IMG/VR virus record: IMGVR_UViG_3300033149_003588
Span: 10,460 to 74,459 of that record
Strand: one strand, 5' to 3'
DNA: 64,000 nt
Source: a virus
Shown in pieces: positions 37,774 to 47,630 of the stretch. The position numbers and the translations under genes were made by a program. A model generated the notes under the pieces. The model worked only from the letters and a program-made list of their open reading frames with translations, was not told the origin of the DNA and searched no databases. Position 1 is the stretch's first letter. The number at the start of each line of letters is the position of its first letter.

Positions 37774-37962
37774 CTATTTGCCCAAGAATTTGGCAGAAAT
37801 TTGTTTTAATCTTTTTAAATACTTCCTCCATGATTGAGGCACGCCACCCATTAATGGATATCTAGAAGGCAACACCTTGGTATTTATACCCACCGAGTGA
37901 GGCATTTCAACAGTACTCATTAGCTCTTGAATATGTTCTTTATTCACAATAGGTATAATCAT
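37774..37962 (-). CDS. IQE-leader small basic protein (MIIPIVNKEHIQE)
   Basis: Shared leader; basic amphipathic C-terminus; ATGA overlap. Confidence 0.75.
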   Translation of the reverse strand: MIIPIVNKEHIQELMSTVEMPHSVGINTKVLPSRYPLMGGVPQSWRKYLKRLKQISAKFLGK

Positions 37963-38288
37963 TTTATATTTCTAATCTGTTTGAGTATATTTTTACCAAG
38001 CTTTTTATATGTCTTGCCAAGATTAATACGATGAGCTATCTTCTGGGTTAATATAGGGATCCTGTTACCCAAATATTTCTGGTGAAACATGGGTTCACTA
38101 ATACTTTTCCCACTATAAAATCTGCCCAGCATAGTACCTATATATTTCTCTCTATTAGTCCATCTTTTAAGTGGAGATTTTATCACTGCAAGCGCACCAG
38201 CCACAGGATCACCACCACCCATATATGTAGCATATCTCCTCAACGAGCCTGGCAGCCTTTCCTGTATACTCATAATTGGAATAATCAT
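37959..38288 (-). CDS. IQE-leader small basic protein (MIIPIMSIQE)
   Basis: Shared leader; K/R-rich cargo. Confidence 0.8.
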   Translation of the reverse strand: MIIPIMSIQERLPGSLRRYATYMGGGDPVAGALAVIKSPLKRWTNREKYIGTMLGRFYSGKSISEPMFHQKYLGNRIPILTQKIAHRINLGKTYKKLGKNILKQIRNIK

Positions 38289-38311
38289 AATATTGTTATC
38301 ATTAGATATAA

Positions 38312-38388
38312 TGGAGGTGTGGGCATCGAAGCCCAGTCCATGAATTACCTATATAAGGTCTTAATTCATGTCGAAACCTTTCACCCCC
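38312..38388 (-). ncRNA. ssrA: Mini-tmRNA: ssrA-like tRNA(Ala)-like domain only, no mRNA-like domain
   Basis: GGGGGTG AAAGGTTTCGAC ATGAATTA AGA CCT TATAT AGG TAATTCAT GGAC TGGGC TTCGAT GCCCA CACCTCC A: 7-bp acceptor stem with G3.U70 and discriminator A, tmRNA-type stemless D loop, closed P2-like helix, GGAC linker, T arm (6-nt loop). CCA is not encoded. Confidence 0.8.
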
Positions 38389-38399
38389 ATACTTGTATA

Positions 38400-39212
38400 C
38401 TATATTGCACTGTACCACCATTTACTATAAGTAGTAACAAGATCATCCTCTGTCTCGTGACTACCAATTTTATATTGCGTACTATCTATCCCCGTATCTC
38501 TTTCCACATCATATTGTACACTTGTAAAGTCCGCCACCGCTGATTCTTCTATCTTTCGCCAATATACTACACCATCTATAATCTCACGATACATACGCTG
38601 CTGCTCTCTTTCCCAATGAGAATCGAATACCCTTATGGCATCCATAATTTTTGTACTTAAATTTCCTGCGCCAATATTTGATCCAGGTTGACTTATACTA
38701 GGAATTAATAACCACTGATTTAATATTATCTGATAACAATGTCTCACGGCTCTATTGGTCAACCAACTTATATCCCACTTATTTAATTCAGATAAATCTG
38801 ATGGAATTTCTTTAACATCAGCTTCTGAGTGCATAAGGGCATCCCCGATTGCAGCACTTGATAATGAATCTGCCAAAGGGCCCAACTGTCTTATAACTCT
38901 ACCTAATAAACTATTACCCGTGTCCTCTTCTACTATAAATATTCTTTCAAATGTGGTATCACCAGCGGTCCATATATCTTTGTATATACCAGCAGTGTTG
39001 ATTGTTATAGTAATAGTATATTGACCAATTATGACCTCAGTAATGTCAGAAACATTAAGTGATATATCTGTATATTCTACCCAACCAGTTTCACCATCTA
39101 AATGATATATAGCAACATCAGTAAATCCAGGGTTATACAGTTCACCATCTTGATTATATGTAACCAAAGTTAGAGTTATAGGCTCGTCTATCGTATTATT
39201 ATAACGACTCAC
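38400..39212 (-). CDS. Putative head-tail adaptor/connector
   Basis: N-terminal Ig-like segment (IGQYTITITINTAGIYKDIW) and helical C-terminal adaptor-like domain; position upstream of the neck genes. Confidence 0.5.
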   Translation of the reverse strand: MSRYNNTIDEPITLTLVTYNQDGELYNPGFTDVAIYHLDGETGWVEYTDISLNVSDITEVIIGQYTITITINTAGIYKDIWTAGDTTFERIFIVEEDTGNSLLGRVIRQLGPLADSLSSAAIGDALMHSEADVKEIPSDLSELNKWDISWLTNRAVRHCYQIILNQWLLIPSISQPGSNIGAGNLSTKIMDAIRVFDSHWEREQQRMYREIIDGVVYWRKIEESAVADFTSVQYDVERDTGIDSTQYKIGSHETEDDLVTTYSKWWYSAI

Positions 39213-39245
39213 AGTCCATTCTCCCTAAATCTACATGATAACCCA

Positions 39246-39512
39246 TTATAAACGTGGTCTTTTTGCCTTTAAGTATATCTGTCCTATATTTTTATATATT
39301 TTCCCAGCATCTGTGCCCACATTTCGAGCTGCCATATAACCATAGAATTTCTTCTTCAATAATTTGGCTACATGTGGATTCTTGATATTGCCAAATGACG
39401 GAAGTATGAGGGCGTATTTACCACCATACGACGGGCTAGATATTAATTTCCTAAACATACCCATAACAGCAGACGGTGGAGTTTCTTGAATATGTATAAT
39501 AGGTATCAACAC
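39246..39512 (-). CDS. IQE-leader small basic protein (MLIPIIHIQE)
   Basis: Shared leader; GTG start in a TAGTG overlap. Confidence 0.8.
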   Translation of the reverse strand: MLIPIIHIQETPPSAVMGMFRKLISSPSYGGKYALILPSFGNIKNPHVAKLLKKKFYGYMAARNVGTDAGKIYKNIGQIYLKAKRPRL

Positions 39513-39742
39513 TACGACTTCCTCTTCTTACCTAGACCCTTTCCTTCGCCCTCACCAAAACCGGGACCCTCTTCACACGGCTCAGTGTTCTTATTTCTTC
39601 TCAGACCACCAGGCATACCTTTACCCTTGCCTGCTCCGGCCTTCTGTCCATAAATTACTGATTTTCCTCTACCACGTCTGAATAATCTGGCAAATAGATC
39701 ACCAATTTTCGTTTCCTGAATTATAATCGGTATTACCATCAT
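39512..39742 (-). CDS. IQE-leader G/K-rich protein (MMVIPIIIQE)
   Basis: Shared leader; GKGKGMPGGLRRNKN...GPGFGEGEGKGLG cargo; ATGA overlap with the endolysin gene. Confidence 0.8.
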   Translation of the reverse strand: MMVIPIIIQETKIGDLFARLFRRGRGKSVIYGQKAGAGKGKGMPGGLRRNKNTEPCEEGPGFGEGEGKGLGKKRKS

Positions 39743-40368
39743 TCCTCCATCTTTCTATATGATTTTTTAAACTTGCGTTTTCTTATCCATTTTTTATAGG
39801 CTGCTTTAGCTTTATTTATATACCCGTGCGGTACTACATCATCCTTATATGTGCCAGAATTATAACCATCAAATATATCATCTATACTTTTAGGATTATA
39901 CTTAAGCACCCTGTTATTCAAAAACTTAATCACATAAATAATGGCAATCTCATCATTATCTAGTTCCTCTGGTGTGCCACGAAATCCTAATTCCCAGGCA
40001 ACAACAAATAATATTTGCCATGATGAATAGCTTTTTGCAGCGGCTCTTCCGAACCTCTTCACTAAATCTCGAACTTGTTTAGATTTCTTATAATAATACC
40101 CACCTTTATAATATGATTTTTCAAAAAGTGGCTTTGTATTTTTACCATAATTGCTTTCGACGCATGCTATAGCCTTCAATAATATCTCTGGATCAACATT
40201 GATTCTTTTCAAATTTCTTAGATGTGGGGCATATTCCTCAATTAGCAACCCCAGTCTATTCTGCCTGGTTGTTGCTGCTACCCACCGTCGCATTTTTATA
40301 GTTTCAAGCATTTTATTTAAATTCCAGTGCAATATAATATATCTCCATGTTTCGACAATAACATTCAA
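39739..40368 (-). CDS. Endolysin, lysozyme/transglycosylase-like fold
   Basis: LLKAIACVESNYG (catalytic Glu), SYSSWQIL, AWELGF, YNSG motifs; basic tail; start may lie downstream. Confidence 0.8.
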   Translation of the reverse strand: MNVIVETWRYIILHWNLNKMLETIKMRRWVAATTRQNRLGLLIEEYAPHLRNLKRINVDPEILLKAIACVESNYGKNTKPLFEKSYYKGGYYYKKSKQVRDLVKRFGRAAAKSYSSWQILFVVAWELGFRGTPEELDNDEIAIIYVIKFLNNRVLKYNPKSIDDIFDGYNSGTYKDDVVPHGYINKAKAAYKKWIRKRKFKKSYRKMEE

Positions 40369-40424
40369 ATTATTTTATATCGTAGAATTCTTAAATATGC
40401 CCCACATGTAATCATCTGATTATA

Positions 40425-40859
40425 CTATTTATTTTTCTTCTTGAATGTTTTAGCGCCCTTCTTTAACGTCCCAAACAAATCACTAACTGAGCCCCATGCC
40501 TTTAATACATCTTTAACTGCCTCAACTGCTTCTTGATACTCTTTAATAATGGCTACCCGTTCTTCTTTGGTTATTTTCTTATCTTCAAGTGCTCCTATGG
40601 CTGATACCCCAACCTCTTGAGCTGCAATAATAGCTTCACCAACCTCCTTCATCAGTACACAAACACCAAGAATAATAGTTTTAACCTTGACAAATATTAC
40701 TGCAACAGCGCTAATACCTAGAACAATGGCAATAATCCAATTTATCAGTGACCATTGATCTATTCCTGGTATTAGATCTTCTATACCATCGGCCATGATG
40801 GTAGTCGTCGATACTGTCAATAATAACAATATCATATAAATTAGTGTACTCCATTTCAT
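40425..40859 (-). CDS. Membrane protein, putative holin/lysis protein
   Basis: Hydrophobic N-terminus, TM segment, ALEDKKITKEE motif, basic tail; adjacent to the endolysin gene. Confidence 0.6.
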   Translation of the reverse strand: MKWSTLIYMILLLLTVSTTTIMADGIEDLIPGIDQWSLINWIIAIVLGISAVAVIFVKVKTIILGVCVLMKEVGEAIIAAQEVGVSAIGALEDKKITKEERVAIIKEYQEAVEAVKDVLKAWGSVSDLFGTLKKGAKTFKKKNK

Positions 40860-40873
40860 ATTATCCTTCCTTT

Positions 40874-41503
40874 CTATGGTGTCGATCTCAACATCTCATC
40901 AGAATACGACACATTAAATATTGGCACACCATTTTGGATAGAATTATAAGAAATATCCTTTATTCCAGTAATCCCGCCCAATGCTGTCAAAATAGTAGGT
41001 AATTTAGTTATCAATATAAGATCATTTTTATAGTCAATAGTCTCCGAAATTAATATCTTGGGTACTTCCATTTCAACAATGCCGCCTACATCTACAAATG
41101 ATAATACGCCAATATTCTTGTCAAATCTAGACAATGGCATGGGATCATGAACATTATCTAAAAATGTAGCATCACTACCAATCTCATTTAATGTAAAACT
41201 CCTTATATAACTAATATCAATACTATCATTGCTCTCAACAACCAGACTATAATCATATGTCAAATCCTGTATAAGGGTAGTCGCGCTATCTTCTACTATA
41301 TTAATGGCTTTATCAACAGATAATGCAACCAATTCATCTCTAATTGATTCAATATCAAATATTGTCAGATATCGCATATACCACACAGTTACAACTATAT
41401 TACACGCAACTTGTCTTACAATATTGCCATCTATCGTATGTGTCTCGCTATAGTGGGGCTTTATATACTCAAATTTGTAATATGTTTTACAAGGATTGGC
41501 CAT
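40874..41503 (-). CDS. Hypothetical protein
   Basis: 209-aa ORF within the operon. Confidence 0.65.
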   Translation of the reverse strand: MANPCKTYYKFEYIKPHYSETHTIDGNIVRQVACNIVVTVWYMRYLTIFDIESIRDELVALSVDKAINIVEDSATTLIQDLTYDYSLVVESNDSIDISYIRSFTLNEIGSDATFLDNVHDPMPLSRFDKNIGVLSFVDVGGIVEMEVPKILISETIDYKNDLILITKLPTILTALGGITGIKDISYNSIQNGVPIFNVSYSDEMLRSTP

Positions 41504-41526
41504 TATAATTATGACAACAAAATAAT

Positions 41527-42717
41527 TTACATACTCACCCTATAATCACCATCAGGATATATCCAGCATGCTATTAACCCCTTTGCAGGTGGCGCATAAC
41601 CAAGTTCGCTACCATAACTGTCGAAATAATTTAAAAAAGAACTACAAATGACAATGTATTGTTTTTTAATATCCAACGTAAAATCTATGGGATTTCTCAC
41701 TATTCTATTCTTCTTTTTGTCTGTCGCATCATGCACATGACCACTTAAAAAGAAACAACAATGCTCTGTAAACATTAACGGAGATAATGCCGCATTAAGT
41801 TTGCCCCCTTCAGATCTAGCACTAGAACGACCATGCCAAGCATAAAATGTAAATGTGTGCTCCCCATATATTACATCTATAAATGCTGGTTCTCTGTAAT
41901 AAGGAATTTCTAGTTTGCTAGCTATTACCTCACCCATATCTATGCCAACACTATTTGCCGAACGTCTTTCGTGATTGCCTCTTACATATGCCAATATTTT
42001 ATGTTGTATTGGTGCTAATTTAGATATCATCTGGGCAGCTTGCGCCTGTGGTGACATGGATTGTCTATATACTGAATCTGCAACACTATACTTAGAACTG
42101 TTTTCTATCATGTCCCCCAACAATATTACATACACACCATCCGTATCGGCAATCCATTTTATACTCGTATCAAATAGCTCTTCATCAAAACTCGGTTCAG
42201 CATAGTGGACATCACCAAGTGGTATGATTTTTACTTTATCAAGTTCAAGATCTGAAGATGGTAATTGTACTCTTAAGTATGGGCAATTATCATTTTCATT
42301 AATAAATAATTTAAACTTCCTTGGTATAAAATCTAAATGCTTATTAAATTCCTTGAGTAGTGCAACTACTTTCCCGGTTGATCTAGTATTAAATTTAAAT
42401 ACTTCATATCCAAGTACACTCCCCAATATCTTATCTACTTCTTCTTCATTAATCCCATATTTATTATATAGCGCACGATATGATAATGCCCTTAATTTTG
42501 CCCAGCCAATAAGCGTAGCATGATCTAATTCCTTGACACTTTTTCTGCTAGCTAGCATGCCTCTTATTGGAGTAAGCCCCATCGCCATAGCCTTATTATA
42601 TACAGCGCTAGCTGTTCTTAGGGGTAACATATCTGCAATATTATTCAAAGACAAAATACCCCAATTATCTCTTATTACATTTTCTTCATCTACTGTCCAA
42701 CGTATATTACCAGCCAT
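41527..42717 (-). CDS. Calcineurin-like metallophosphoesterase with N-terminal Myb/HTH-like domain
   Basis: GDVH, GDMIE, GNHE, WHG and GHVH motifs; N-terminal RWTVDEENVIRDNW...IADMLPLRTASAVYNKA. Confidence 0.9.
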   Translation of the reverse strand: MAGNIRWTVDEENVIRDNWGILSLNNIADMLPLRTASAVYNKAMAMGLTPIRGMLASRKSVKELDHATLIGWAKLRALSYRALYNKYGINEEEVDKILGSVLGYEVFKFNTRSTGKVVALLKEFNKHLDFIPRKFKLFINENDNCPYLRVQLPSSDLELDKVKIIPLGDVHYAEPSFDEELFDTSIKWIADTDGVYVILLGDMIENSSKYSVADSVYRQSMSPQAQAAQMISKLAPIQHKILAYVRGNHERRSANSVGIDMGEVIASKLEIPYYREPAFIDVIYGEHTFTFYAWHGRSSARSEGGKLNAALSPLMFTEHCCFFLSGHVHDATDKKKNRIVRNPIDFTLDIKKQYIVICSSFLNYFDSYGSELGYAPPAKGLIACWIYPDGDYRVSM

Positions 42718-43028
42718 TATCCACCTCTTTTAAAAAAATTGAGCAAATTGGCCAATCTACTTTTACCAATTTTGGTAAAATTAGCAGAATGTTTACCACG
42801 CGCGGACTTGACAATAGATTTAAGTCTTTTCCTCATGAATTCCCTAGAATCGAAGATAGTAACATTAGGATGCCTGTACTCATTTTTTAGAAAGCGACCT
42901 TGTTGTAGTAAACCGCCCATCCTGCCCGCGATATTTGACCGCTTTAAAAAATCAAGCCCACTGTCTCTTTCCTGCGTTATCGGAACAGCACAATGGGCAC
43001 CAGAAATATTTACAATGGGCACTAACAT
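42717..43028 (-). CDS. IQE-leader variant small basic protein (MLVPIVNISGAHCAVPITQE)
   Basis: Extended leader with a duplicated VPI; basic cargo. Confidence 0.75.
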   Translation of the reverse strand: MLVPIVNISGAHCAVPITQERDSGLDFLKRSNIAGRMGGLLQQGRFLKNEYRHPNVTIFDSREFMRKRLKSIVKSARGKHSANFTKIGKSRLANLLNFFKRGG

Positions 43029-43045
43029 ATATTATTTACCCACCA

Positions 43046-43384
43046 TTACCCAGACAATATGCCAATCATACTAACTACAATACTTATAGAAATATATAAA
43101 ACCCCAAGCACTATATGAGTTCTCTTTAATACAAATCCTGTTTGCTCTCTCATGGCTTTCATAATATTGAGTTCTAATTTGTTGTTTTCTATTTGATCTC
43201 TTATTATTCTAAACTCGTCATCAATATTCTTCTGTTGACTATTCATAAATTCTTTAACTTCATCAATACTCTTTACCACTGCTCCTATTTCTTTCCACAT
43301 CTTGGTAATAATAATAGCAAGACGGCCCTCAATAAGCTTGCCATCATCATCATAGAGATTACTAAGATTATTATTATCTGCCAT
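43046..43384 (-). CDS. Coiled-coil protein with C-terminal TM helix (holin/XhlA-like)
   Basis: Heptad region followed by IVLGVLYISISIVVSMIGIL. Confidence 0.55.
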   Translation of the reverse strand: MADNNNLSNLYDDDGKLIEGRLAIIITKMWKEIGAVVKSIDEVKEFMNSQQKNIDDEFRIIRDQIENNKLELNIMKAMREQTGFVLKRTHIVLGVLYISISIVVSMIGILSG

Positions 43385-43393
43385 TATCGCTCA

Positions 43394-43681
43394 CTAATAT
43401 TTAAATTTTTTATATGTGTCACTCGATTCCATAATCATCATTGAAATAGAATGTTTTAGTTGTCTTATCGCATCAAGAAAAGCTTGCGGTTCAACCATGG
43501 CTTCAAGATTATAAAATCTTACAATATCTTCACGATTAACATTTTCAAAAATAAATTCTGCCTTATTATTATTTAAAAGAGCCTTCTTAACACCTACATA
43601 TTTGGCCCCGTTCAATAAATATAAATAGGCCGCCAAACAAATATCGCTAGTCGTACCACTATGCTTATCATAATGAGGCAT
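43394..43681 (-). CDS. DUF5659-like phage protein
   Basis: TSDICLAAYL...FIFEN...VEPQAFLDAIRQLK pattern; likely start MPHYDK at 43681 with AGGGG SD (the track start 43756 overlaps the upstream gene). Confidence 0.65.
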   Translation of the reverse strand: MPHYDKHSGTTSDICLAAYLYLLNGAKYVGVKKALLNNNKAEFIFENVNREDIVRFYNLEAMVEPQAFLDAIRQLKHSISMMIMESSDTYKKFKY

Positions 43682-43691
43682 TATTGTGCCC

Positions 43692-43976
43692 CTATTCTTT
43701 CTTGAATGGCCCCAATCCCAGTCTCTTCTGAATGGCTTCTGCCTTTTTATATACATCAGGACGATTATGTTGACGAGCTCTCGTTTTAGCAGCGCTCAAC
43801 ATTCTACTAGATATATTCCCAGCCTTATCACGATAAGGATATTTTCTATCAGATGGTGATAAAAACGAACTAGCAGGCATTTCTCGTCTCACAGCTGGAC
43901 GATGAAGCCATTTCTTCCCTGATAACCTGGCTCTCGTAATTTTTTGCTCTTGTATATTCACAATAGGTATTAACAT
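43692..43976 (-). CDS. IQE-leader protein with DUF6582-like cargo (MLIPIVNIQE)
   Basis: Shared leader; MPASSFLSPSDRKYPY...LSAAKTRARQH resembles the RKYP motif family; GAGGTG SD. Confidence 0.8.
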   Translation of the reverse strand: MLIPIVNIQEQKITRARLSGKKWLHRPAVRREMPASSFLSPSDRKYPYRDKAGNISSRMLSAAKTRARQHNRPDVYKKAEAIQKRLGLGPFKKE

Positions 43977-44029
43977 TAGAAAATCACCTCACTTATACAA
44001 CCATAAAATTAATTTACTTTTCTTTTTCG

Positions 44030-44344
44030 TTATCTATATGGATACACATATGGATATGGACGCATTTGTCTAGACAATTGAGGCTGACTACTCTGTTTCT
44101 TTATAGATCTTTTAGTAGCAATCTTCCCTCCTATCTTATAACCAGTATACCCAGCCAGCGGCACAGTACTAACAGCAGCACCACCCATGACTTTCGCTAA
44201 AACAGGATGTTTTCTCACAAATGTGGTAATCTTAGGCCCTCCCATACGTGCAATAAGCTCACCCATGCCACGCATAGCATGTAATGCTCTACTCCTAAAA
44301 GAACCTATAGGAACTTCTTGAATATGTACAATGGGTATAATCAC
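44030..44344 (-). CDS. IQE-leader small basic protein (MIIPIVHIQE)
   Basis: Shared leader; Gly/Ala hydrophobic stretch; ends RPYPYVYPYR. Confidence 0.8.
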   Translation of the reverse strand: MIIPIVHIQEVPIGSFRSRALHAMRGMGELIARMGGPKITTFVRKHPVLAKVMGGAAVSTVPLAGYTGYKIGGKIATKRSIKKQSSQPQLSRQMRPYPYVYPYR

Positions 44345-44353
44345 TATATAATT

Positions 44354-44704
44354 TTATATTATTTTAAATACTTTATTTTTTCTTTGTTTTTTTCTTAATT
44401 TTTCTATATTTTTTATAGCTCCCACACTGTTTGTGGGAATAGCAGCAATATCATGTGTGTCCACTCCCCTAATCTTTACATCTATAATATGTCTCTTGGG
44501 AATGCGACCCAATAAATAACCTGCCGGACCAGCCCCAAGAACACCAAGTCCTAATACCTTTTTATATTTACGAGTAGTTTTCCCAGAAGCACCCAATGAT
44601 TTTAATATAGCATGCCCCATTTTGCCAGGAATACTGCCAATCCTATTCATAGCTTTTATCTTATTAAATATACTTTCTCTTATGTTGATAACCGGTATAA
44701 ACAT
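44354..44704 (-). CDS. IQE-leader small basic protein (MFIPVINIRE)
   Basis: Shared leader; GLGVLGAGPAGYLLG; ends KVFKII. Confidence 0.8.
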   Translation of the reverse strand: MFIPVINIRESIFNKIKAMNRIGSIPGKMGHAILKSLGASGKTTRKYKKVLGLGVLGAGPAGYLLGRIPKRHIIDVKIRGVDTHDIAAIPTNSVGAIKNIEKLRKKQRKNKVFKII

Positions 44705-44737
44705 ATTAATATAGTTTTCTGTATTTACTACATAAAT

Positions 44738-44965
44738 TTATATTATCTTAAATACTTTCCGTAGTAAATTAAGTTTAGTAGCATTAACACCAAATGGTTT
44801 GGTACTTCCCATTATAGCTCGTGATAATCTTTTACGTATATTTAATCTCTTTGCTGCCTGAGCTAACTGCGCCATTACAAGCGGATCATGAACCCTCGGG
44901 ATAGATTTAGCATAGGTGCCCCCAACCTCTTGTATAATCTTCGCATTTGCTATAGGTATCAACAC
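44738..44965 (-). CDS. IQE-leader small basic protein (MLIPIANAKIIQE)
   Basis: Shared leader with insertion; ends KVFKII; TAGTG overlap. Confidence 0.8.
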   Translation of the reverse strand: MLIPIANAKIIQEVGGTYAKSIPRVHDPLVMAQLAQAAKRLNIRKRLSRAIMGSTKPFGVNATKLNLLRKVFKII

Positions 44966-45309
44966 TATTTCTTTTTCTTTCCTAATTTTTCTCTTATCTT
45001 GGATTCAATTTTATATTTCTCAAGCCCACGCGCGTATTTTGTTTTAAGGTATGGCTGCAAAAGAGCAGAAAGCCCACCCAACGCGCCAGCACCAAAAGTA
45101 GCACCCATAAGACCCCTGGTAATTGCCTTGCTACCTTTGGGACCGAAAAAACCCATTAGACCTCCCACACCACCCAATACGGCACCCCTCTTAAGCCCCG
45201 TATATGCTGCAGTAGGTCTTGTACGTATATATGCTAAACGACGTTTATATTTTTGAATTTGTTTATCAGGATCATCCGCTTCCTGTATATTTACAATTGG
45301 TATAATCAT
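44965..45309 (-). CDS. IQE-leader glycine-zipper basic protein (MIIPIVNIQE)
   Basis: Shared leader; GAVLGGVGGLMG and GATFGAGALGG zippers; TAATG overlap. Confidence 0.82.
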   Translation of the reverse strand: MIIPIVNIQEADDPDKQIQKYKRRLAYIRTRPTAAYTGLKRGAVLGGVGGLMGFFGPKGSKAITRGLMGATFGAGALGGLSALLQPYLKTKYARGLEKYKIESKIREKLGKKKK

Positions 45310-45836
45310 TATACGCTCTTCTTTTTCTTTTTATTTTTTCTAGACAACGCACCTAAACCATAACCAACACCATAACCACTGGCCGCATACCCCGCATAAG
45401 GTATAATAAAACCTAGCATATCATGGGGGTGTTTAGATCGCCACATCCAATTTTTAATTATTCGGGTACCCCTGCCACCATGAACCCTCGTTACATATTT
45501 TTTAATAGCGCTAGCACCACTCTCTTGTACTTTGCCCACCTTCATCGGTATTTTATGCTTACGACGTGTAGGAGACACCTTACGACGAGTCTTACGCGCT
45601 TTACCACCATGATACAAACCACTGAGACCCGCCATAGCAGCAGTATAATGCATTAGCGAACGTGAAAATCGGTCTTGATATGGATAACCCAATATCCACA
45701 AACTACGACGTGGATTAATAGATTTTGTATGTCCTATACTAAAATGCCCAAATAGATCAGGTTTCATAGCAATAGCACGTTTCCCAAATTTATAAAATCT
45801 ACCAGCCTCGCTTATATGCAGAATAGGTATAACCAT
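45309..45836 (-). CDS. IQE-leader two-module basic protein (MVIPILHISE; internal KIPMKVGKVQE)
   Basis: Shared leader; AAGGAG SD; second leader-like motif mid-protein. Confidence 0.8.
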   Translation of the reverse strand: MVIPILHISEAGRFYKFGKRAIAMKPDLFGHFSIGHTKSINPRRSLWILGYPYQDRFSRSLMHYTAAMAGLSGLYHGGKARKTRRKVSPTRRKHKIPMKVGKVQESGASAIKKYVTRVHGGRGTRIIKNWMWRSKHPHDMLGFIIPYAGYAASGYGVGYGLGALSRKNKKKKKSV

Positions 45837-46535: not shown

Positions 46536-47630
46536 TTAAGAATTATTAGATCCCTTATACCAGGGGCGATAATCAAGAATTATCTTACCCCAGATGTGAC
46601 GAATTTTATAACGAATTTCATCGCGATTAAAAGCATTACCACTAGTGCTATTCTCAACGTACATCTCCGGTTCCCTATGTCCTCTCAAGAAACCAACTTC
46701 GAGAGTATCATATTGTTTGGGATCTGCTATAAGATACCACTCATCAGAACCCAACCAATTGGAAATTCTAATTTCCAATTTACCACCGATTTGGAAAAAG
46801 TTTGGCTCGTTCGGAGTATGAGTTCTAGCAACACCATCGGTATGATACATGTGCGTGCCAGGATCAATACCAGCAGCTGTAATGGTACCATCGGTAATCG
46901 GAACAGTTCTTGCATTGAGAACTTTTAGGACCCTAACTTCCTGTTCAGGACCAATAAGTAGATACCTCGGTGTCATACCAATAACATTCTCATTACGCAG
47001 GTCTTTCTGTGTTCTTATGGCTTTATAACCATCAGCTAGCTTAGCCTCAGTAATAACATTAACACCAGTATCTACATTACCATGATCTGACGCAAAAAGT
47101 GTCGCACCATCATAAATAGTGGGATTGCCAGTAATATAGGTTATGATGTCTTTATCAAGACTACGCTTGGCGGCCCTGCCCATCTTGATAGGTTGCTGCC
47201 TCAAAACATGTAGGTCGTCATTTATGATACATTCCCATGAGATACCAAAAATGCGCCCGTACTTCTGAACATTATACTTAATCTCTTCTTCGGCGAGTGC
47301 ACTATCTCTATATTCACCGTGCTCAATAACTGCCTCTAGAAGATCAGCTTCACTTACACGTTCCCTGTATTGATCTTTGAAATCATTAACATCATTAATT
47401 GCCGAAGCAAGATCCTGCCATGTGCTAGGGAGTTCCTTGTATTCTTTGAGTAGTTGTTTAAACATCGTATTCCTAAGAATATAAGGAAAATCAGCAGAAC
47501 TTGCAGCTTCTTGCAATAACAGATTGTAATGACCGCGTTCGATCTCATCAAGAGCTATCTCTTGAATAGGAGTCAAATGGCCTTCATTTTCAGCCCTGAA
47601 TTGCGTCGCCCATGTTTTAGGATCGTACAT
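46536..47630 (-). CDS. Major capsid protein (Mu gpT-like, HK97 fold)
   Basis: SSADFP, VNDFK, HGEY, KYGRIFGISWECIINDD, LFASDHGN, PRYLLIGP, WYLIADP, IRYKIRHIWG...DYR motifs. Confidence 0.92.
   Translation of the reverse strand: MYDPKTWATQFRAENEGHLTPIQEIALDEIERGHYNLLLQEAASSADFPYILRNTMFKQLLKEYKELPSTWQDLASAINDVNDFKDQYRERVSEADLLEAVIEHGEYRDSALAEEEIKYNVQKYGRIFGISWECIINDDLHVLRQQPIKMGRAAKRSLDKDIITYITGNPTIYDGATLFASDHGNVDTGVNVITEAKLADGYKAIRTQKDLRNENVIGMTPRYLLIGPEQEVRVLKVLNARTVPITDGTITAAGIDPGTHMYHTDGVARTHTPNEPNFFQIGGKLEIRISNWLGSDEWYLIADPKQYDTLEVGFLRGHREPEMYVENSTSGNAFNRDEIRYKIRHIWGKIILDYRPWYKGSNNS

Follow-up and report, generated by a model that had tools for sequence, protein, structure and literature searches.

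The processing of tmRNA by RNase P, its alanylation and the binding of EF-Tu and SmpB at its tRNA-like domain (TLD) are established (PMC3929946 and PMC8363625, in the sections available). In E. coli tmRNA, SmpB makes its contacts at U17, C18, G19 and A334 (PMC8363625, same sections). The closest described relative of the RNA considered here is encoded by mycobacteriophage DS6A at JN698994.1 28478-28560 (tmRNA database entry Phage__Mycobacterium.9) and was classed as 'TLD only' in the available part of PMC4131195. According to the same text, which cites Mao et al. 2009, a molecule like the DS6A RNA is a strong inhibitor of tmRNA whether or not it can be charged, possibly because it titrates SmpB. 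Inhibition of the endogenous tmRNA by the DS6A form in E. coli is also stated in the accessible portion of PMC11915505; as far as these portions go, the test was made in E. coli, outside infection. The curated tmRNA database described in PMC11915505 holds 97,179 sequences, including 79 phage genes and 9 'standard, no CDS' genes, and the phage example given in the portion available is DS6A; the nine may include further phage TLD-only entries.

No description of the breadth of such a family was found in the literature searched, and PMC10690425, which lists 10,006 viral RNA candidates and names tmRNA once in the part available, could include the family unnamed. The TLD-only form has already been published for one phage, DS6A, while its breadth across many phages appears from sequence comparison to be new here. 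The first-pass annotation of the present locus had cited the tagless tmRNAs of jakobid mitochondria but missed the published phage precedent.

Structure of the element

The gene lies on the minus strand of the window, that is, the whole 64-kb stretch of DNA that was analysed, and is composed of the following parts. The first-pass annotation had named no strand.

38312..38388, minus strand: TLD-only (tagless) mini-tmRNA gene of 77 nt, from G1 (38388) to the discriminator A73 (38312)
38382..38388, minus strand: 5' strand of the acceptor stem, holding G3 of the G3·U70 pair (sequence and fold)
38370..38381, minus strand: D-loop equivalent without a D stem, its 3' end being the conserved, SmpB-contacting tmRNA hexamer (sequence)
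38340..38369, minus strand: 30-nt replacement of the mRNA-like domain, consisting of P2a (8 bp), a purine bulge and a small capping hairpin (fold)
38336..38339, minus strand: connector (variable-loop equivalent), its A being part of the SmpB pocket (sequence; PMC8363625, available sections)
38320..38335, minus strand: T arm of 5 bp, with C53-G61 closing a 6-nt loop (fold)
38312..38319, minus strand: 3' strand of the acceptor stem, with U70 and discriminator A73 and no encoded CCA (sequence)

A scan of the window with Rfam gave a single match in the entire 64 kb, the tmRNA model RF00023 at this site, with a score of 55.2 bits (E 5.9e-19; gathering score 47). Within the Rfam clan, RF00023 and not RF02544 was the best match. 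The first-pass annotation had expected a tmRNA search to return local matches at both ends, and this is what was obtained: both model ends were covered and approximately 300 positions between them were skipped. The acceptor stem has 7 bp with a G3·U70 pair, followed by A73 as the discriminator, and these features, also claimed before, were present in both the sequence and the fold. The G3·U70 pair is the determinant recognized by alanyl-tRNA synthetase (AlaRS). The RNA also keeps what we take to be the equivalents of U17, C18, G19 and A334, with a U at position 15 in the E. coli numbering.

The 30-nt insert is wholly helical, without a resume codon or tag frame; its purine bulge has 3 nt and its capping hairpin 3-4 bp and a 5-nt loop. 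The minimum free energy of the whole RNA was -30.5 kcal/mol (z -4.07), a value as good being reached in 1 of 200 shuffles, and 22 of the 24 pairs had probabilities of 0.95-1.0, unaffected by the addition of 30-120 nt of flanking sequence. The fold and the two-ended Rfam match bear out the earlier description of a tagless tmRNA tRNA-like domain with its message replaced by a hairpin.

Other assignments were considered. The D stem and anticodon arm of an alanine tRNA are absent. The features of a complete tmRNA that are missing are the mRNA-like domain with its resume codon, the tag frame, the pseudoknots and the consensus T arm with G53-C61 and a 7-nt loop. The parts lie in the order 5' then 3', which is not that of a permuted two-piece tmRNA, and there was no second match in the genome, a model search of the complete genome having found the mini-tmRNA once. 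ARAGORN did not call the mini-tmRNA and placed no tRNA at the site. The element is a genuine gene for the tRNA-like domain of tmRNA in which the message domain has been swapped for a bulged hairpin.

Distribution and conservation of the family

A strict search pattern found 99 stretches in IMG/VR. A looser pattern, applied to 10 of the 64 IMG/VR parts, gave 120 rows, equivalent to an estimated 770 or so stretches; a 6-7-bp acceptor stem was present in 87 of these rows and absent from 33, which scales to about 560 IMG/VR stretches. All 87 had G3·U70, with G3 left free in the pattern. In the strict scan, in which the 3' strand was free, U70 and A73 were found at the fixed offset in 56 and 57 of the 58 distinct copies, respectively, the exceptions carrying indels. 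There were 116 distinct viral cores with 7/7 acceptor pairs and a 7-nt T loop, and 89 were left after an 85% identity filter. The insert was 26-33 nt long in 106 of the 116 distinct copies, and CCA was encoded in 33 and absent in 83.

The stems are well preserved. P2a pairs 1 to 5 were formed in 87, 85, 81, 82 and 83 of the 89 non-redundant copies, compared with means of 36-46 and maxima of 49-57 in shuffled controls, and each T-stem pair was formed in 89/89. Acceptor pairs 4-6 vary across the family, while G3·U70 stays fixed. The first-pass annotation had proposed covariation among homologues as a check, and in an alignment of 34 sequences 96.5% of the cells pair and 17 of the 22 pairs changed on both sides, a result matched in 0/500 shuffles and by none of the slid structures. 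A corrected P2a structure was used for this test; in the family model R1, P2a was misregistered by a column or two, so that R1 scores are probably low. R1 gave the window RNA 65.6 bits, the window copy having been part of the R1 seed. Because the search patterns demanded the D-loop hexamer and the connector, the fact that neither varies in the family is no evidence of conservation. The stems of the family and its G3·U70 pair are under purifying selection.

Longer inserts were also found. Inserts of 47-107 nt accounted for 93 rows in the whole collection, 21 of them with the full 7/7 acceptor stem. Among these is a longer class of short viral tmRNA-like genes, with inserts of 49-89 nt, and several of its members have in common a branched arm that contains an A-rich bulge motif. 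Inserts of 251-311 nt were estimated to occur in about 1,600 stretches (115 of the 120 sampled were valid), and many of these are probably host genes at prophage edges. The scan patterns differ in strictness, so the ratio of minis to long-insert genes is rough, and the longer inserts covered were those of 47-107 nt and 251-311 nt.

In GTDB genomes, minis made up 12 of the 120 rows (35 of 64 parts), and their small number indicates that the mini-tmRNA is a viral gene. Most of the non-mini GTDB rows resembled, by eye, the 3' end of an ordinary tmRNA in which the hexamer happens to occur internally. The assemblies that contain the 12 minis are bacterial and carry the labels of several phyla. The idea of a mini-tmRNA on a planctomycete chromosome was entertained and dropped, 108 of the 120 rows not being minis.

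The surroundings of the family copies are varied. A tRNA gene was present within the flank at 20 of the 63 non-redundant loci whose flanks were long enough. A neighbour of named function was present at 29 loci: 16 of these had virion or lysis genes, several of the 16 being one related group, and 13 had replication, nucleotide or other genes; some copies are in tRNA arrays. No integrase was found in the 88 of 124 neighbour ORFs that were scanned, those left out being mostly opposite-strand and short ones. ORFs of 375-390 aa that follow several minis were taken for integrases by their size and were shown to encode major capsid or portal proteins.

Cultured phages also carry the gene. Seven records matched one family member over at least 80% by BLAST. 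Unannotated minis were located in LuckySocke (OR725497), phiPsal1 (MG835450), Jojan60 (ON045087) and pSt2308 (PV588686), and these four copies scored 72.6-81.7 bits on the family model, all above the Rfam threshold; BLAST also gave GiJojo, BRock and Alone3 as carriers. The DS6A RNA scored 56.7 bits on a family model built without it, and was missed by Rfam at the gathering score and by the first search pattern. As at the present locus, the phiPsal1 and DS6A minis lie beside virion or lysis genes. The four GenBank records checked leave their minis unannotated, and ARAGORN overlooked that of the window. With 116 distinct viral copies and 14 more with a short T loop from partial scans, the TLD-only tmRNA is a common phage gene. 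Its presence in cultured phages of Streptomyces lividans makes knock-outs possible in a laboratory host, and the family size and these carriers, rather than the window copy, make a bench test worthwhile.

The T-arm variant

The T arm of the window RNA, with C53-G61 and a 6-nt loop, differs from that of the 89/89 seven-nt-loop copies, all of which have G53-C61. This difference first suggested decay, as did a 6-nt-loop scan in which 2 of 14 rows were complete minis. The decay reading was overturned when the variant was found to recur in intact phage tmRNA genes and in other minis. The C53-G61, 6-nt T arm alone occurred in 122 IMG/VR stretches, with the stem fully paired in 119/119 of those returned. 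ARAGORN found complete tmRNA genes at 22 of 48 such loci (8 standard, 14 permuted), mostly with ordinary-looking tags. In JGI metagenomes, 19 of the 40 rows with this T arm were complete minis, 14 of them distinct, and all had G3·U70.

The 6-nt loop and the missing CCA had been entered as caveats in the first-pass annotation. Both facts are correct; their weight is reduced, since the loop variant recurs and 83/116 family copies are also without CCA. The C53-G61 T arm is a recurring, tolerated variant and not a sign of decay, and it may be enriched in phages. Apart from showing that a C-G-closed 6-nt T loop is tolerated, this copy adds little beyond the family.

Genome setting and relatives

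The virus record, 144,798 bp long, carries direct terminal repeats and has a completeness rating of 100%. Within the block of virion genes, the mini-tmRNA has the capsid gene (46536-47630) on one side and the tape-measure gene on the other, and its neighbours are on the same strand.

38400..39212, minus strand: upstream neighbour, 270-aa orphan gene in the virion block (ORF)
37959..38288, minus strand: downstream neighbour, 109-aa basic protein with an I-P-x-x-x-I-Q-E leader (ORF)

The TAG of the 270-aa gene, which ends at 38400, precedes the RNA by 11 nt, and the ATG of the 109-aa gene, at 38288, is 23 nt past it; both distances agree exactly with those first reported. The only homologue found for the 270-aa protein was itself, and neither it nor the 109-aa protein (19% K+R) had a match in PHROG or Pfam. 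In the 2.1 kb around the RNA, 7 promoter-like sites were found where 9.8 were expected, and none was directly upstream, so that co-transcription with the late genes is the simplest reading. One DNA sequencing run contained two exact 151-nt matches near the element and none over it.

Several features of the surrounding block were observed. A terminator-like hairpin (window 37743-37723, minus strand) follows two leader genes downstream of the RNA and may end the transcript that contains it. The minus strand at window 37774-45836 holds some ten small genes that share the leader I-P-x-x-x-I-x-E, the six measured being basic (16-22% K+R), and the start of the capsid protein also contains IQE and LQE. 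The T4 prohead protease cleaves according to the rule I/L-x-E, and by likeness to it the leader genes may encode head-internal proteins with a cleaved targeting leader. A 153-aa ORF on the plus strand (window 38082-38543) overlaps the RNA antisense and is probably spurious, because the large neighbouring genes are all on the minus strand.

SmpB had no match in the phage genome (the control matched in 10/14 genomes), so the SmpB partner would be that of the host. Searches of the complete genome with the tyrosine integrase (PF00589) and resolvase (PF00239) families also gave no match, the controls matching in 14/14 and 12/14 genomes, respectively, and ARAGORN at default settings called no tRNA or tmRNA gene. 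Peptidyl-tRNA hydrolase (Pth), release factors and the CCA-adding enzyme had no match among 93 of the 107 ORFs outside the window and 29 inside it. A DnaE polymerase, an anaerobic NrdD (with an intein and a LAGLIDADG domain) and RecA are encoded outside the window. The presence of DnaE and NrdD suggests that the host is bacterial and probably anaerobic. An adenylosuccinate-synthetase-like gene and an adenosine deaminase are also found outside the window, and genes with DUF4116 repeats form a long tandem array across the genome ends. The phage further encodes an FtsH-like AAA plus M41 peptidase (genome 118740-120734, minus strand). FtsH degrades SsrA-tagged proteins in bacteria, and a link between this gene and tagging is possible.

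A single-sequence capsid scan gave no close relative of the phage. The best capsid homologue had 49% identity. The mini was present in 0/5 records of the closest reachable relatives (46-47% capsid identity), one of them more than 90% complete (92%); its absence there suggests that the gene is accessory. Full tmRNA (ssrA) likewise had no match in the five distant-relative records. Compared with cultured phages by BLASTN, the element matched 6 records, all at chance level (E 2-8), and a second short-T-loop mini matched none.

Proposed function and its alternatives

The first-pass annotation had listed an SmpB decoy, a tagless competitor and a processing signal as possible functions. The decoy or competitor is the best supported of these, because an RNA of the same build, that of DS6A, has been reported to inhibit tmRNA in E. 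coli. The balance of the evidence leans towards a DS6A-like tagless mini-tmRNA that would be cut from a late transcript, alanylated and bound by host SmpB, and that would dampen SsrA tagging. By extension from tmRNA biology, 1) RNase P would cut the RNA at G1 out of the late virion-gene transcript, 2) the 3' end would be trimmed and CCA added by host enzymes, 3) host AlaRS would charge the RNA with alanine and 4) the charged RNA would be bound by host SmpB and EF-Tu. By extension from the DS6A homologue, 5) competition with the full host tmRNA would inhibit trans-translation, and 6) SsrA tagging and proteolysis of stalled phage proteins would fall, with a presumed benefit to the phage.

The window RNA retains the SmpB-contacting bases of the D loop and connector. 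It has no message and thus cannot tag, so that tagging would fall by competition. According to the available text of PMC6207430, ssrA deletion restored phage propagation in recoded E. coli; tagging thus blocked phage growth there, and a motive for a phage to dampen it exists. If the proposal is true, phages have in this 77-nt RNA a means of manipulating ribosome rescue, a route of host takeover with one published example.

There are points against the competitor. Tagging is not harmful to phages in every case, since many of them encode a full tmRNA that tags. Blocked rescue could leave ribosomes stuck, to the detriment of the phage if no back-up rescue factor steps in. The weakness lies in the unvarying G3·U70, which a pure SmpB sponge leaves unexplained: a sponge need not be chargeable, yet this pair is fixed while acceptor pairs 4-6 drift, which favours a reading in which the charge is used.

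In that alternative, the alanylated mini, with host SmpB and EF-Tu, would enter stalled ribosomes, accept the nascent chain and, for want of a message, either drop off or hand the chain on to another copy, so that one or a few alanines are left in place of the SsrA degron. A TLD fragment with SmpB makes polyalanine in vitro without a template (Shimizu and Ueda 2006, as related in the available parts of PMC3929946 and PMC2481249), and tmRNAs without a coding sequence (CDS) persist with SmpB in mitochondria and some plastids (PMC11915505, portion available). The retention of G3·U70 and A73 beside drifting pairs fits a charged RNA, as does the T stem, which contacts EF-Tu (PMC8363625, available sections) and is fully paired in 89/89 copies. 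Active rescue is nevertheless held to be a tentative and rather unlikely reading, because no release step is known for a peptidyl-TLD without a stop codon, and the phage ORFs scanned gave no match to Pth, a release factor or a CCA-adding enzyme. Moreover, charging may serve only to protect the 3' end, and the sole in vivo report is of inhibition. The broader form of this idea, in which a widespread, unannotated class of alanine-charged phage RNAs enters stalled ribosomes and diverts the trans-translation of the host to rescue without a tag or to alanine tailing without a template, is speculative to a similar degree. If it were true, alanine tailing would be an RNA-based counterpart of RqcH tailing, and the phage would decide the fate of its own stalled proteins.

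Less probable again, and in our judgement doubtful, is a decoy for host defence proteins that recognize or cut tmRNA or tRNA elbows, such as CoCoNuT, which has SmpB-like domains. The CoCoNuT systems combine SmpB-like OB folds with RNases predicted to target tmRNA (PMC11090510, part available), the RNA has a patchy occurrence in related phages, a pattern common for counter-defence genes, and 20/63 family loci have a tRNA gene in the flank. The targeting of tmRNA by CoCoNuT is itself only predicted, anticodon nucleases cannot be decoyed by an RNA without an anticodon loop, an alanine identity pair is not obviously needed and the phage in question has no tRNA genes.

A cis-acting processing signal, a tRNA-like fold at which RNase P would cut the late transcript and tune the neighbouring genes, is slightly less probable still. 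The RNA fits tightly between two genes on its own strand, promoter-like sites directly upstream of it do not exceed chance, and virion or lysis neighbours are found at 16/29 family loci and at those of DS6A and phiPsal1. A cut site, however, has no need of G3·U70 or of the conserved bulged P2 arm, copies elsewhere are in tRNA arrays or beside replication genes and some of the virion-block loci belong to a single related group. Since all the models predict processing, it does not discriminate between them.

A remnant without function left by deletion of an ssrA, or an attachment-site core through which the phage would integrate into the host ssrA, was the refutation foreseen in the first-pass annotation, and in spite of ssrA being a common integration target (PMC11915505, portion available), of the missing CCA and off-consensus T arm and of the lack of a close relative that could show conservation at the locus, it is very improbable and already largely refuted by the covariation: both ends and all stems are intact, there is no match to a tyrosine integrase or resolvase family in the complete genome and no integrase among 88 neighbour proteins of family loci, the inserts cluster at 26-33 nt (106/116), the T-arm variant recurs in intact genes and the distant relatives are without a full ssrA match too. 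The longest run shared by the 3' part with 120 genome loci was 12 of 28 nt, these loci having been preselected for a canonical T arm.

Comparison with known systems

How a natural tagless tmRNA acts on a stalled ribosome is an old question that is now testable. A standard bacterial tmRNA (ssrA, RF00023) shares with the window RNA both ends, the alanine identity elements and the SmpB-contact bases. Compared with ssrA, the window RNA is without approximately 300 nt that comprise the pseudoknots, resume codon, tag frame and stop codon, and is thus unable to tag or to end translation by the normal route.

The CDS-less organellar tmRNAs, those of jakobid and oomycete mitochondria (RF02544) and those of about 65 nt in Mallomonadaceae plastids, are also without a tag frame (PMC11915505, portion available). 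They are the organelle's own, and the mitochondrial ones are mostly permuted and have a dedicated SmpB, whereas the window RNA is viral, has no SmpB of its own and would coexist with a full host tmRNA. The full-length and two-piece phage tmRNAs (Melnitz, Wildcat; PMC9004378) resemble it in having a phage-encoded tmRNA head, and many share the C53-G61, 6-nt T loop. They encode tags and presumably support tagging, which the window RNA cannot.

The DS6A RNA is the nearest in build. Both are phage-borne, 77-80 nt long, with G3·U70, A73 and no encoded CCA, and in both the message is replaced by P2a, an A-rich bulge and a small hairpin. The DS6A RNA starts 10 nt and the window RNA 11 nt past a same-strand stop codon, in or at the end of a virion block. 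The two differ in that the window RNA keeps the consensus D-loop hexamer and connector, both of which are altered in DS6A, while the T arm is canonical in DS6A and the C53-G61, 6-nt variant in the window. DS6A encodes a tyrosine integrase, for which the window phage has no match, and BLASTN gave no significant match between the two. The window RNA is a member of the known DS6A kind and an ordinary one within its family.
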